This document shows positions 3,361-56,873 of a DNA stretch of 64,000 nt, one piece after another (positions within the stretch are counted from its first letter, which is position 1; the number at the start of each line of letters is the position of its first letter). This DNA is from Escherichia phage HK3. The position numbers and the translations under genes are program-made. Under the pieces are notes generated by a model, which worked only from the letters and a program-made list of their open reading frames with translations, searched no databases and was not told where the DNA came from. The DNA is taken from the sequence record PP526765, one strand, 5' to 3'.

Positions 3361-3381
3361 GGGGCTTCAAAGCCCCATTTT
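3361..3381 (+). terminator. hairpin GGGGCTTCAAAGCCCC followed by ATTTTG
   Basis: perfect 6-bp GC stem directly after the Prs-like stop. Confidence 0.5.
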
Positions 3382-3397
3382 GAGAGAGATTAAAAAG

Positions 3398-5179
3398 ATG
3401 ACTAAATCACTTTATGCAGTACCAGCAGGTTTAAACGCGGATGCTTACAAGTCTGGCCATATTTATCAGTATCCTAGTGCAACAGAGTACCTAATGTTCA
3501 ACCTGACACCACGTAGTGATAAATGGTTTAACAGCCCTTTAGCAATTGACGGTGTAGTTGCTTTTGGTATTCAACGTTTTGTTAAAGATTACTTGATAGA
3601 CCACTGGAACACCACCTTCTTTGAACGTGACAAAAAAGAAGCAATTGATGAAATCTTAGAAGTCATGAACGGTGTTCTGGGTAAAGATGCTATTGGTCGA
3701 GAACATTGGGAAGCACTTCACGACTTAGGCTATCTACCAGTTGAAGTATACGCTGTAGAAGAAGGCACAGTTGTTCCTATGCGTGTACCAATGATTGTCT
3801 TCCAGAACACTGTTTCAGGTTTCCATTGGGTAGCGGGGTATCTGGAAGATGCTTTCTCTGCTGAGATTTGGAAGGCTTGCACCATTGCAACTATTGCATT
3901 GCACTACAAACGTATCTGTAAGAAGTGGGCTGACCTTACTTGTGACAATGACTTGCATTTGCCTTATCAGTGCCATGACTTTGCTATGCGTGGTATGTCT
4001 GGCTTTACTGATGACGCATTTAACGCTGTAGGCCACTTAACCAGCTTTAAAGGTACTGACAGTTTCCCTACTGTGTATACGGCTAAACGAATCTATGGAC
4101 AGTCCTACCCAATCTCTGATATTGGCAGCTCTGTACCAGCCACTGAACACTCTGTAATGTGTGCAAACATTGCTTGGGAAGGTGGTAATGAGTTGATTGA
4201 AGAAGAAAGACGCTTTAAAGGTGAGTTACAAACCTTCCGTCGTTTCTTAACAGAAACTTACCCAACTGGTATTGCAAGTGTTGTTTCAGACACTTATAAT
4301 TTCTGGAGAACTGTATCAGAAATCTTACCAGCACTTCGCAAAGAGATTATGGAACGTGATGGAAAACTGGTAATTCGTCCTGACTCTGGCGACCCTGTAC
4401 ATATTGTCACAGGCTATAAAGCAATCCACTTAGAGTGCGCTAAAAAAGCTTATTACGAACACCTAAGCAAGCTGGAAGCAAGCGACACAATGTTGAATGC
4501 TGTTCTGAACATGAAGCTTGAAAACATCAGTTATGGTATTGCTGGATGGCTACTGTCAGAAGGCTACGAGATGGTTGTTGACAGAGAAGACTTTGAAGTT
4601 GCTGATACAGTGATGTTGAAAAATGCTTATATGGTTGGCTCTGCAAACGTTGTAACACGTCCTGTAGCAGAGATTGATGGGGCTATTAAGACCCTGTATA
4701 ACATCTTTGGAGGGACTATCAACTCTAAAGGTTTTAAGGTACTAGATGAACACATTGGCCTTATCTATGGCGACTCTATCACGTTGGAACGTGCAAACGA
4801 AATCTTGAAGCGTTTGTATGAAATGGGTTTTGCAAGCTCTAACGTAGTGTTTGGTGTAGGTTCTTACACTTACCAGTACATGACTCGTGACACTTTTGCA
4901 TTTGCTGTCAAAGCAACTCTTGCAAGCATTGGCGGTAAAGAGATTATGCTTGCAAAAGACCCTAAAACAGATAGTGGTGTTAAGAAGTCTGCTTTTGGTG
5001 GTGTAGCGCCTATGTGGGATGGTGATAAGCTGAAAGCTGTAGATGGCTATGGATTCCAGAGCTTTGCAGATGCACTTGAACATCCAGCTTGTGCTTTACG
5101 TTTAGTCTTTAGCGACTCTGAGCAGTTCGGTTACACAACTCTTGGTGATATTCGAAACAATATTGACAAGCAGCTTTAA
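3398..5179 (+). CDS. nadV: nicotinamide phosphoribosyltransferase-like protein (NAMPT/NadV family; possibly Namat type)
   Basis: NAMPT signature stretches SVPATEHS, VVSDTYNFW, IRPDSGDP; track ORF starts at TTG 3380, first ATG at 3398. Confidence 0.85.
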   Translation: MTKSLYAVPAGLNADAYKSGHIYQYPSATEYLMFNLTPRSDKWFNSPLAIDGVVAFGIQRFVKDYLIDHWNTTFFERDKKEAIDEILEVMNGVLGKDAIGREHWEALHDLGYLPVEVYAVEEGTVVPMRVPMIVFQNTVSGFHWVAGYLEDAFSAEIWKACTIATIALHYKRICKKWADLTCDNDLHLPYQCHDFAMRGMSGFTDDAFNAVGHLTSFKGTDSFPTVYTAKRIYGQSYPISDIGSSVPATEHSVMCANIAWEGGNELIEEERRFKGELQTFRRFLTETYPTGIASVVSDTYNFWRTVSEILPALRKEIMERDGKLVIRPDSGDPVHIVTGYKAIHLECAKKAYYEHLSKLEASDTMLNAVLNMKLENISYGIAGWLLSEGYEMVVDREDFEVADTVMLKNAYMVGSANVVTRPVAEIDGAIKTLYNIFGGTINSKGFKVLDEHIGLIYGDSITLERANEILKRLYEMGFASSNVVFGVGSYTYQYMTRDTFAFAVKATLASIGGKEIMLAKDPKTDSGVKKSAFGGVAPMWDGDKLKAVDGYGFQSFADALEHPACALRLVFSDSEQFGYTTLGDIRNNIDKQL

Positions 5180-5194
5180 AAGTATATGATAAGA

Positions 5195-5216
5195 GGCTCC
5201 TACGGGAGCCTTTTTA
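5195..5216 (+). terminator. rho-independent terminator
   Basis: GGCTCC-TACG-GGAGCC hairpin plus TTTTT immediately after the NAMPT-like stop. Confidence 0.7.
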
Positions 5217-5232
5217 ATTTCTGGAGAATGCT

Positions 5233-5577
5233 ATGGACAACCTTTCCATATGGTTTAACAAGAAACCTGTACAACCGAAATACTTGCAAGTTGCCTATAC
5301 AGATATCCTTGAAGTTCTCGGTAAAGAAAAGTTTGAAAAGTTTTGTGAAGGCATCTACAATCATCACTGCCAATTTGCTACAAAAGAAGGTATGTTTGTC
5401 ATAGAACAGTTCTTTGGCAGAGACCCAGATGACTACGAAGAGATTAGCTTTGTAATGAAATATATGATAGAGTATATTGAAAATCGTGGATTCGAAGTTA
5501 ATCCTGAATTTTATGAGCACGAGGGTGTACCTTTAGCAAAAGGTTTTGATGGAATACTTGTTAGCTGGACTTGGTGA
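5233..5577 (+). CDS. hypothetical protein (114 aa)
   Basis: ORF track. Confidence 0.5.
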   Translation: MDNLSIWFNKKPVQPKYLQVAYTDILEVLGKEKFEKFCEGIYNHHCQFATKEGMFVIEQFFGRDPDDYEEISFVMKYMIEYIENRGFEVNPEFYEHEGVPLAKGFDGILVSWTW

Positions 5578-54492: not shown

Positions 54493-54494
54493 TA

Positions 54495-55352
54495 ATGTTT
54501 CAGAAAATTGATAACGTTTATTATAAAACTCTTGATGAAAGAACTGTTACACAGTTTAAAGATAAATTCATCTACACGAGTTTACTGAAAGCTATTACTG
54601 ATGAGTTGCAGACATTGGAAGATGTTTCATGGCAGATGCACACTGAAAGGAATATCAGGAAGGCAATTGGGCAGCAACTTGATAATATTGGCACTTTAAT
54701 CAAAGTCCCAAGACCGCTTGGTGCTGATGATGAAACATATAGGGCAATGTTGTATATCCAGATTTTCTTAAGACGTTCTGATACGACTCCAACATTCTTA
54801 CAGAATGCTATTATGACACTGTACAATGCAACATTTTCACAGATTTTTGAGCATATCACACCTATGACTGCTGGTATTGTGGTTAGGGTTAATACAAGAA
54901 ACAATGTTATTGATACAGCGTACACATTAGCAAAAATTGCTGCAACAACTATTGGTTCAGCAGTTATTTTAAGAGATGTGACTTTAAATGGTACTGCTTG
55001 GACACCTGTAGAGGTTGCTGACTCCGCTTTAGCAATTGTTGATGACAAAGATAACTGGTTCGTTACAGATACTAACAAAGGCCTCATTACCAACAATACA
55101 GGGGGTTCTTTAGAGAAGAACTTACTAGGTAGCTTAGCAGATGCTGGTGTCAGAGATGCTTATTTCAAGATTGACAGAACAGCTAATAGTGGCTCAGTAG
55201 ATTACTTAAAAGTTAATAAAAACTATAACGCTACAGACAACTACATCGTTGGTAAAGAAACTGTAGCAGGTGGTGATTATGGTGTTATGGCTGAAGTAGC
55301 TCAAATCATCAAAGGTAGAAAAGATAAATCACAGCAAGAAGGAAGTTCTTAA
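54495..55352 (+). CDS. baseplate/tail fiber-associated protein (putative)
   Basis: ORF track. Confidence 0.4.
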
Positions 55353-55654
55353 TGGCATTTTTAAATTGGTCTACAGATGAAGTAGATGCTGATGGTAACC
55401 AGCTAAAAGTATTACCACCACCAGAAATTCAGGCAACTGGCTTATTAAGGGGTGAGCCTATGGGTCGCCAATGGTTTAATTATATCTTAAACTACCTCCT
55501 GAAGAAAGCAAACGGCACTGTTGGTGAAGTAAGGTCTTTTGCCACTGAGCAACCAGATTTAGTAGCTAATGGTTGGAGCCTTATTAAAACCGAAACAGGT
55601 ACTGCATCAACAAGTACAAAAAACCTTTATACTTATGAATTTGTAGGAGCTTAA
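55352..55654 (+). CDS. hypothetical protein (100 aa)
   Basis: ORF track. Confidence 0.4.
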
Positions 55655-55656
55655 TA

Positions 55657-56826
55657 ATGGCAGTAGGTGAAATTCAAATTAGTGCCTTGCCTCAAGCAGC
55701 CTTACCGATTGACCTTAGTGATATCTTCCATCTTAAGCAGGGTATTGAGGATAAGAGATGTACTCTTGAGCAACTACTTGCTCCACACTCAAGCTTAAGA
55801 AATAACCCTCATGGTGTTACTAAAACACAAATTGGTTTAGATAATGTTATTAATGCTCTTCAGTTAGTTGCTGCAAATAACTTATCAGATATTGTTAATG
55901 TAGCTGAGGCAAGAAAAAATCTACAGATTATGTCTTCAGAAGAGGTTAATAGTCTTATTCAACAGCATATTAATGACAAGAGCAACCCACACAATACAAC
56001 TAAGGCACAGGTTGGTTTAAGTAATGTCCAGAACTGGACAACATCTAACCTTTATAATGAAGATGCAGATAAGTATGCTACAGCAAGAGCAGTAAATAAC
56101 TTGTACAAGGCTGTTCAGGCTTCTTATCCAGTAGGTACTATCCATCTCTCTATGAATCCTGCAAACCCTTCTACATATTTAATTTGTGGAGGTACTTGGG
56201 AGTTAGTCTCAAAAGGGAGAGCACTTGTAGGTTATGATAGTGATTCTAGGCCAGTTGGTAGTAACTTTGGCTCTAGCAGTGTTAGTTTGTCTAGCAACAA
56301 TTTACCATCACACAGCCATTCTATCTACCTAACAGGTGGGAATCATAGTCATGGTGCAAATGTCTCAGTTAGTGCGTTTGATTATGGTACTAAATCAACC
56401 TCATCATTTGATTACGGTACTAAGACTACAAACACTACGGGTGCTCATACACACTCTGTGAGTGGTTCAACAAATACAACAGGTGCTCACACGCATGGAT
56501 ATGTCACTGGTTACCAAGATACTGGTGCATCAGGTGATTGGGATAGGGATGGACACAGGAATACTGTTCAGACCGATAGTGCTGGTAACCACTCTCACTC
56601 CATCAGTGGTACTGCTGCATCCAATGGTAATCATAATCACACGGTGGCTATTGGTTCGCACTCACACACTGTTGCTATCGGAGCGCATTCACACAATGTA
56701 ACAGCTAGTGTTACTGGAGCCGGAGAACACACCCATTCAGGTACTACCGGTGCTACTGGTGCTGGTCAAGCATTTAGTGTTGAGCAACCATCTTTTGTAG
56801 TTTATGTATGGCAAAGAACAGCTTAA
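55657..56826 (+). CDS. short tail fiber / receptor-binding protein with His-x-His tip domain
   Basis: C-terminal 180 aa carries at least 9 HxH motifs (SHSHS, NHSHG, AHTHS, AHTHG, NHSHS, NHNHT, SHSHT, AHSHN, EHTHS) and ends ...AFSV...W.RTA. Confidence 0.65.
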
Positions 56827-56873
56827 AATTCTTTACAGGGGGCTGTATAGCCCTCTTTCTAGAGGACAAAATA

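Follow-up and report, generated by a model that had tools for sequence, protein, structure and literature searches.

Promoter/stem-loop cassettes in the early region of a Felix O1-like phage: probable overlap of early promoters with a selected RNA hairpin

Why should a stable stem lie in the spacer between the two hexamers of a promoter? This question is raised by the genome of Escherichia phage HK3 (sequence record PP526765), of which a stretch of 64,000 nucleotides (here called the window) was analysed. An earlier note on this DNA had described hairpins of the GGGGCT...AGCCCC type next to promoter-like hexamers and had proposed a phage-specific regulatory module. With its G+C content of about 39% the window is, judged from its rII region, most of the genome of a Felix O1-like myovirus (genus Felixounavirus, subfamily Ounavirinae), since this region is 94-97% identical to Felixounavirus genomes (e.g., Shigella phage Z31 and Escherichia phage HMD-P10) and is covered to at least 80% by 247 of 257 matching records. 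The best reading of the repeated elements here called type A, and of a simpler site between rIIA and rIIB, is that of composite promoter/stem-loop cassettes resembling the promoter-early stem-loop (PeSL) cassettes of T4-type phages. Quite probably the DNA of an early promoter here also encodes an RNA hairpin that is under selection and acts on read-through RNA.

Composite elements occur in a single 5.8-kb array only (14.5-20.3 kb), where each of about a dozen small genes has its own unit. The earlier description as genome-wide goes too far, since the remaining sites are single and heterogeneous. Five units belong to type A (Table 1) and show the layout ATAAAGTAC-TTTACA-N-GGGGCTTAA-(loop)-TTAAGCCCC-AGATAAAGnnCTTTACC-...-CCTTAAACTAGGAGATTCnAAAATG. 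Their upper stem comprises 9 bp (GGGGCTTAA/TTAAGCCCC or GGGGCTTAT/GTAAGCCCC) and closes a loop of 11 nt in all five window copies. Beneath it lies a lower stem of 11-12 bp (AAAGTACTTTA/TAAAGAGCTTT), which in the RNA fold reads AAAGUACUUUA/UAAAGAnCUUU with one mismatch and is separated from the upper stem by a 3x3 internal loop; the whole helix amounts to about 21 bp, with folding energies of -21 to -25 kcal/mol and z-scores of -4.2 to -5.3. The -35 hexamer sits in the lower stem and the -10 hexamer (TAnnnT; TATCTT or TAAAGT in the window), 17 nt past TTTACA, is located within the upper loop and the 3' arm. Upstream of TTTACA the consensus is nnAATAAAGTAC, corresponding to the AT-rich upstream region of PeSLs, and a leader with Shine-Dalgarno (SD) sequence and start codon, CCTTAAACTAGGAGATTCnAAAATG, is found at 12 sites at the 3' end of the elements.

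This architecture is not peculiar to one phage. The array was compared in 15 other phages of the genera Felixounavirus and Mooglevirus plus one Erwinia Kolesnikvirus, which yielded 82 type A copies in 16 phages of two genera and four more in Erwinia phage FIfi106, a member of the third genus. TTTACA is followed by TAnnnT at exactly 17 nt in 82 of the 82 copies, with nine versions of the -10 hexamer; in the alignment T36, A37 and T41 are invariant and the remaining loop columns vary. The upper stem occurs in relatives as GGGGCTTAA/TTAAGCCCC, GGGGTTATC/GATAGCCCC, GGGGTTTAT/ATAAGCCCC, GGGGTTTAT/GTAAACCCC or GGGGCTTGG/TTAAGCCCC. In the Erwinia phage an unlike stem (GGTGTTTA/TAAGCACC) stands between the same flanks, with TAGTAT or TACCAT at 17 nt and TAGTCT at 18 nt. 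A regulatory module that spans the lineage and couples promoter hexamers with a stable stem, in line with the earlier proposal, is thus borne out by conservation in relatives.

Is this structure selected as DNA or as RNA? Pairs were counted in a gap-free, arms-only alignment of 62 distinct copies, each loop being replaced by AAAA. Over the whole structure 93.8% of the cells are paired versus 34-53% in slid controls, seven pairs have changes on both sides, and the covariation score is 0.210 versus 0.076 in shuffles (reached by 0 of 500). The upper helix is paired to 99.3%, five of its nine pairs being compensatory; for the lower helix the value is 89.7%, including a compensatory change from G-C to U-A at pair 7-50. 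The + strand has frequent pairs of the U.G type; of the 62 sequences, 30 show U22.G35 and 53 show U8.G49. Because many pairs are U.G on this strand only, the structure appears to be a sense-strand feature at the RNA level, which points to RNA rather than to a cruciform or a symmetric protein site, and a duplex form of the factor-binding site suggested before becomes unlikely. A DNA-level element, i.e. a cruciform or an operator at which a dimeric phage repressor would turn off early promoters, would suit the need of early genes for shut-off later in infection; a palindrome (AAAGTACTTT) overlaps the -35 hexamer and AAAG-NN-CTTT flanks the hairpin on both sides. On the other strand, however, the U.G pairs are C.A mismatches, the upstream palindrome is lost in variants (AAATTGCTTT, GATTTCTTTA), changes are mirrored across the flanks as pairing predicts, and the spacing of the arms varies, and we regard such an element as very improbable. 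The AAAGnnCTTTAC copies that flank the hairpin were also considered as a target-site duplication or as operator half-sites; both were rejected, as their variants mirror each other in the manner predicted from pairing and G.U is strand-specific.

The position of the predicted transcription start decides which RNA would carry the hairpin. From the end of the -10 hexamer to the last base of the upper stem there are 6-7 nt, and the predicted start is the A of AGATAAAG, the first base past the 3' end of this stem. Due to this short distance the promoter's own transcript would lack the hairpin, and since this RNA would start past it, the hairpin would be found only on read-through RNA from the upstream gene. 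The earlier suggestion that the GGGGCT hairpin is a 5' stem-loop stabilising the promoter's own RNA does not agree with this geometry, as the predicted +1 lies beyond the hairpin. The geometry of a 5'-terminal stem-loop is found instead in the type B units described below, whose hairpins (GGGGAGGG) begin about 4 nt after the predicted start and were absent from the earlier list.

We suggest that the cassette functions on two levels. As DNA it has the make-up of a sigma-70-type early promoter, with AT-rich upstream region, TTTACA, 17-bp spacer, TAnnnT, conserved leader and SD sequence, as its sequence and conservation show. The same DNA read as RNA gives a strand-specific two-part hairpin of about 21 bp in the read-through of the upstream gene, and this hairpin most likely attenuates, ends or processes the incoming transcript and shields its 3' end. 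By analogy, attenuation or 3'-end protection, as proposed for PeSLs, may be taken as its default role. Directly after the upper stem, 6-7 nt beyond the -10 hexamer, host polymerase would start anew, and in this way every small early gene would have an insulated unit for its expression.

Processing of the incoming transcript deserves separate attention. In the early genes of phage T7 the RNase III signals (Dunn and Studier) are intercistronic hairpins of about 20 bp with an internal loop, located in mRNA made by host polymerase and composed of upper stem, internal loop and lower stem. The type A hairpin, also a helix of about 20 bp with an internal loop between cistrons, could be a site of this kind, at which the RNase III of the host would cleave 3' of the ACA/AGA internal loop, on that side of it. 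The upstream mRNA would then keep a protective 3' hairpin and the downstream mRNA would gain the same 5' end as the promoter-initiated transcript, which would refine rather than exclude the explanation preferred here. A simple attenuator would not need the lower stem, yet this stem is well paired and shows the compensatory change mentioned above; the helix is about two turns long and no U-tract follows. Nevertheless, the T7 sites are not known to be overlapped by promoters, unlike type A, where cleavage is putative. Each cassette has its own promoter, so a monocistronic mRNA would need no processing, and CA and AGA of the internal loop may be fixed by the needs of the -35 hexamer and the start site. 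A search of Rfam revealed no matching family, only sub-threshold matches to microRNA precursors that were taken as chance. RNase III cleavage is in our opinion a possible but rather doubtful alternative. Somewhat less likely still is a stricter version, in which RNase III or a nuclease of the phage would process the hairpin at such a position that read-through RNA, once cleaved, has the 5' end of promoter RNA (AGAUAAAG...), promoter and processing signal being co-encoded base for base. If true, there would be one defined mRNA per early gene by either route, with the upstream mRNA keeping its protective 3' hairpin, and this co-encoding would be conserved across three Ounavirinae genera.

The closest known counterparts of type A are the PeSL cassettes of the T4-type phages RB49/phi1, PST/T4 and nt-1/KVP40 (Arbiol et al. 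2010, PMC2839356; Comeau et al. 2014, PMC4122927). A stem in the promoter spacer or near the start, called unusual in the earlier note, has a precedent, because most often the PeSLs of RB49/phi1 carry their stem-loop either in the spacer from -35 to -10 or across the -10 box (PMC2839356). Both systems consist of repeated intergenic units with an AT-rich region and sigma-70-like boxes about 17 nt apart (-35/N17/-10), a G...C-clamped stem-loop that occupies the spacer or covers the -10 box, and SD sequence plus ATG at the end; both cluster in a hyperplastic region of small ORFans and have indel breakpoints within the elements, and all sequence-level features of PeSLs are thus present in type A. 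Even the -35 hexamer of the PST/T4 set, TTTAC(A/T), is the same. In contrast with PeSLs, type A shows a two-part hairpin with a conserved lower stem that holds the -35 hexamer and the first transcribed bases, and a fixed geometry with the predicted start at the 3' edge of the stem, whereas PeSLs fall into five positional subclasses. Cloned PeSLs had strong promoter activity and terminator-like activity in reporter assays, and recombination between them gave mini-circles (PMC2839356; PMC4122927); against these measured properties type A is known here from its sequence. Neither homology to described PeSLs nor residence in a T4-type genome was found. Type A is an analogue and not a homologue of PeSLs, because it resides in another subfamily (Ounavirinae) and its stems and flanks differ from the published consensus.

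The elements themselves have been recorded before. In Felix O1 direct repeats of 57 bp and 39 bp were reported as repeats only, without a role (Whichard et al. 2010, PMC3185647); the former (CTTTACATGGGGCTTAAAAGTCTGTAAAGTAAGCCCCAGATAAAGAGCTTTACCACT) is the type A element and the latter is the type B sequence. The GenBank record of wV8 marks the same elements as DR_1-DR_9 and annotates some hairpins as terminators of the opposite strand, and in the record of the Mooglevirus Mordin a 14-bp repeat is marked before each ribosome-binding site. A literature search revealed no earlier functional interpretation of these Felixounavirus repeats.

Outside the array the same logic appears once more between rIIA and rIIB, 10 nt past the rIIA stop codon, where the hairpin at 8483 indeed lies inside a TTGACA...TAGAAT promoter as described earlier. 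This site is kept in six Felixounaviruses with changes in the loop only, and its equivalent in Mordin reads TTGACA-GGGGCTGAAAAGCCCCT-TAGAAT. Judged from these letters it is type A logic in a simpler form.

How far does the association of hairpin and hexamer reach beyond these sites? All hairpins listed in the earlier note are present, the cassette coordinates given there falling 5-8 nt inside the actual hairpins. The window-wide motif search that it had proposed yields three sites for the exact pattern GGGGCT-N(1-12)-AGCCCC (3361, 8484 and 20268) versus 0 in 100 shuffles. With three sites only, the exact pattern was dropped as a definition of the family, and structure and flanks were used instead. 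The hexamer TT[GT]A[CT]A adjoins 10 of 54 hairpin loci on the + strand versus about one expected (P = 7e-8), and on the - strand it adjoins none of 69 loci; with the five cassette copies collapsed to one locus it adjoins 6 of 50 (P about 5e-4 by our own arithmetic).

The listed hairpins fall into several classes, with a core set of composite control units and several ordinary terminators. One may ask whether all of them are plain terminators and the flanking TTTACA or TTGACA is coincidental or one strand of a stem. Type A and Rho-independent terminators share a GC-rich stem-loop just past the stop codon, but a GC-rich hairpin together with a U-tract is present only at 18159 (TTTT) and 20297 (T6), which are terminator-like due to their reversed arm order (AGCCCCT...AGGGGCT) and the T runs that follow. 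In the Felix O1 paper 20297 corresponds to terminator t23 and the hairpin at 56838 to t76 (PMC3185647). Promoter hexamers, which the earlier note had connected with all these hairpins, are conserved at rIIA/rIIB and in the cassettes. A -10 hexamer is missing at both 3361 and 56838, and TTTACA at 20290 was rejected as a promoter, the hexamer being unconserved in relatives. At 56838 relatives have GGGGCT-nnnn-AGCCCC-TTTT, and the supposed promoter TTTACA is better read as a stem strand, because UCUUUAC pairs with UAGAGGA, the SD sequence of the downstream tail-fibre gene, in a lower stem. The sites 18163, 20297 and 56838 are plain terminators or attenuators. As an explanation of the whole set plain termination is improbable: in cassettes of three genera with differing stems and at 8483, T-A-n-n-n-T is fixed 17-18 nt from an invariant -35 hexamer, and the U-tract is missing at type A, at 8483 (TAGAAT follows) and at 20268 (AGATACC follows).

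Table 1. Promoter and hairpin features of the window, in order of position
Feature	Position	Strand	Details
prs-like/nampt-like intergenic hairpin	3354-3376	+	CTTTATA + GGGGCT-TCAA-AGCCCC; no -10 hexamer; ATTTTG next
rIIA/rIIB intergenic promoter	8477-8506	+	TTGACA-18-TAGAAT; hairpin AAGGGGCT-TCAA-AGCCCCTT (8482-8501) fills the spacer
First array promoter	14514-14568	+	TTGACT-17-TAGTAT, then small leader hairpin; same layout, different stem in Mordin
Type A element 1	14785-14894	+	-35 TTTACA 14810-14815; -10 TATCTT 14833-14838; ATG 14893
Type A element 1, stems	upper stem-loop 14817-14845; lower 14803-14813 with 14849-14859	+	dG -21.1; z -4.2
Type A element 1, leader		+	CCTTAAACTAGGAG; precedes ATG 14893
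Type A element 2	15257-15366	+	-35 15282-15287; -10 TAAAGT 15305-15310; upper hairpin 15289-15317; z -5.2
Type A element 3	15605-15714	+	-35 15630-15635; -10 TATCTT 15653-15658; hairpin 15637-15665; recombinant
Type B element	16331-16425	+	TTGATT-17-TAAATT; hairpin GGGGAGGG-AATGA-CCTTCCCC 16370-16390; leader + SD next
Type A element 4	16677-16786	+	-35 16702-16707; -10 TAAAGT 16725-16730; hairpin 16709-16737; z -5.3
Type A element 5	17477-17586	+	-35 17502-17507; -10 TAAAGT 17525-17530; hairpin 17509-17537
Further type B copies	17199-17293; 18424-18516; 18989-19081; 19586-19679; 19918-20009	+	
Terminator-like hairpin	18159-18175	+	AGCCCCT-TCT-AGGGGCT, then TTTT; annotated terminator in wV8
Third layout	18893-18930	+	TTGACA, hairpin CCCCTTGA...TCGAGGGG, TAACTT at 17 nt in loop
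Array-end hairpin	20268-20284 (within 20268-20323)	+	GGGGCTA-AAA-TAGCCCC, then AGATA
Intrinsic terminator	20297-20323 (hairpin 20297-20317)	+	AGCCCCT...AGGGGCT + T6; t23 of Felix O1
Tail-fibre intergenic hairpin	56829-56867	+	upper stem 56837-56856 = AGGGGGCT-GTAT-AGCCCTCT; no -10 hexamer

The array is at the same time hypervariable, being covered to at least 80% by only 14 of 298 relatives versus the 247 of 257 given above for the rII region. A gene-order map reveals a common backbone, O H I L A K B C M D J E F N G, on which entire cassettes are found in some phages and missing from others. Gene L is absent in four phages including the window, and there the element that is found ahead of L elsewhere stands before gene A; in type A element 3 of the window the switch point of this L-cassette indel lies within the shared SD-ATG leader. 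In Mordin (L002:115-235) two type A elements follow in tandem with no open reading frame between them, the second TTTACA coming directly after the CTTTACC of the first, which looks like the footprint of a deleted cassette. In phage Mushroom a type B promoter is joined directly to the terminal hairpin. As the units are repeated they would double as recombination points for gain and loss of cassettes, one case being seen here and generality being presumed. In Felix O1 the array genes 16 and 20-22 peak 5 min after infection (PMC3185647).

Several observations weigh against the reading of type A as PeSL-like promoter/stem-loop cassettes. The -10 hexamers are weak, with 3-4 of 6 matches. No U-tract follows the type A hairpin (AGAUAAAG or AGATAAAG comes next), so that intrinsic termination of the canonical kind is not to be expected. 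A large share of the covariation stems from a few lineages and, as the copies within them are related, the shuffle statistics overstate independence; nonetheless the changes span three genera. The gene order of the array is collinear, indicating gain and loss of cassettes without free shuffling, and the promoter half of the reading does not hold for 3361 and 56838. Finally, a literature search found no mapping of 5' or 3' transcript ends for any Ounavirinae phage.

If the reading as PeSL-like cassettes is correct, Felix O1-like phages, which are in wide use in typing of Salmonella and E. coli and in biocontrol, would obtain a first coherent map of their early region, a point left open by the genome paper of 2010: about a dozen small genes, each with a host-type promoter and an insulating RNA structure. 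Composite promoter/stem-loop cassettes and cassette-wise gene turnover would not be limited to T4-like phages but would have arisen by convergence in an unrelated subfamily of myoviruses. With promoter and RNA structure strictly overlapping and both visibly selected, the element would give a clean example of overlapping codes in nature, and phage engineering would gain a compact part.

Alternating with type A the array contains type B units of the general form TTGnnn-17-TAAATT, with GGGGAGGG/CCTTCCCC or variants about 11 nt past the -10 hexamer and a leader as in type A. In two array genes the TAA stop codon (19609-19611 and 19941-19943) is part of the TAAATT that serves as -10 hexamer of the type B promoter next in line, which means that these promoters reach into the 3' end of the gene before them. 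In the records of KhF3 (L003) and wV8 (L023) several type B leader hairpins are annotated as Rho-independent terminators on the strand opposite to the genes, probably an artefact of automatic terminator prediction. The unit at 18893-18930 has the layout of type A with an unrelated stem and is conserved as far as Mordin, as is the hairpin at 20268; the array ends in a hairpin plus T6 terminator.

The hairpin at 3361 has an invariant stem and a variable loop in relatives. In Felix O1 (L005:38205-38723) and LNA6 a gene for an HNH endonuclease (T7 gene 3.8-like) stands between the prs-like and nampt-like genes, and the CTTTATA-hairpin (3352-3397 of the window) is gone. Between the tail-fibre genes the pairing with the SD sequence could control translation of the second fibre; within 56829-56867 the same bases can also form an alternative hairpin, GCCCTCT-TTCT-AGAGGAC.

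Both borders of the array contain further repeats. At 14150-14340, between the terminator of the macro-domain/phosphatase gene and the first array promoter, there are four non-coding copies of about 28-34 nt ending in TTCATTTTCAAAATGTGCAG; repeats with this end are conserved in Mooglevirus (Mordin L021:8280-8460), and a similar ...AATGTGCAGG... occupies the spacer of a promoter, TTGAAA-N-TATAAT, that follows the rIIB terminator in Mordin. On the other side, a non-coding region of 1.6 kb (20330-21900) separates the end of the + strand array from - strand genes and contains short repeats with 11-bp phasing (GCTTAAAAG, CTTGTTAA/CTGTTAA and CCTTTCC runs). The records of several relatives begin or finish near the array, and this region may serve as replication origin or in packaging, or may be the terminus of the genome.

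A last hairpin, AGGGGC-TGAT-GCCCCT (27640-27669), is directly preceded by TATAAATA, which we take to be the consensus of T4 late promoters. Its stem is conserved as far as Mordin with differing loops, and TATAAATA is not kept there; in the Felix O1 paper this hairpin is listed as a - strand terminator (PMC3185647).

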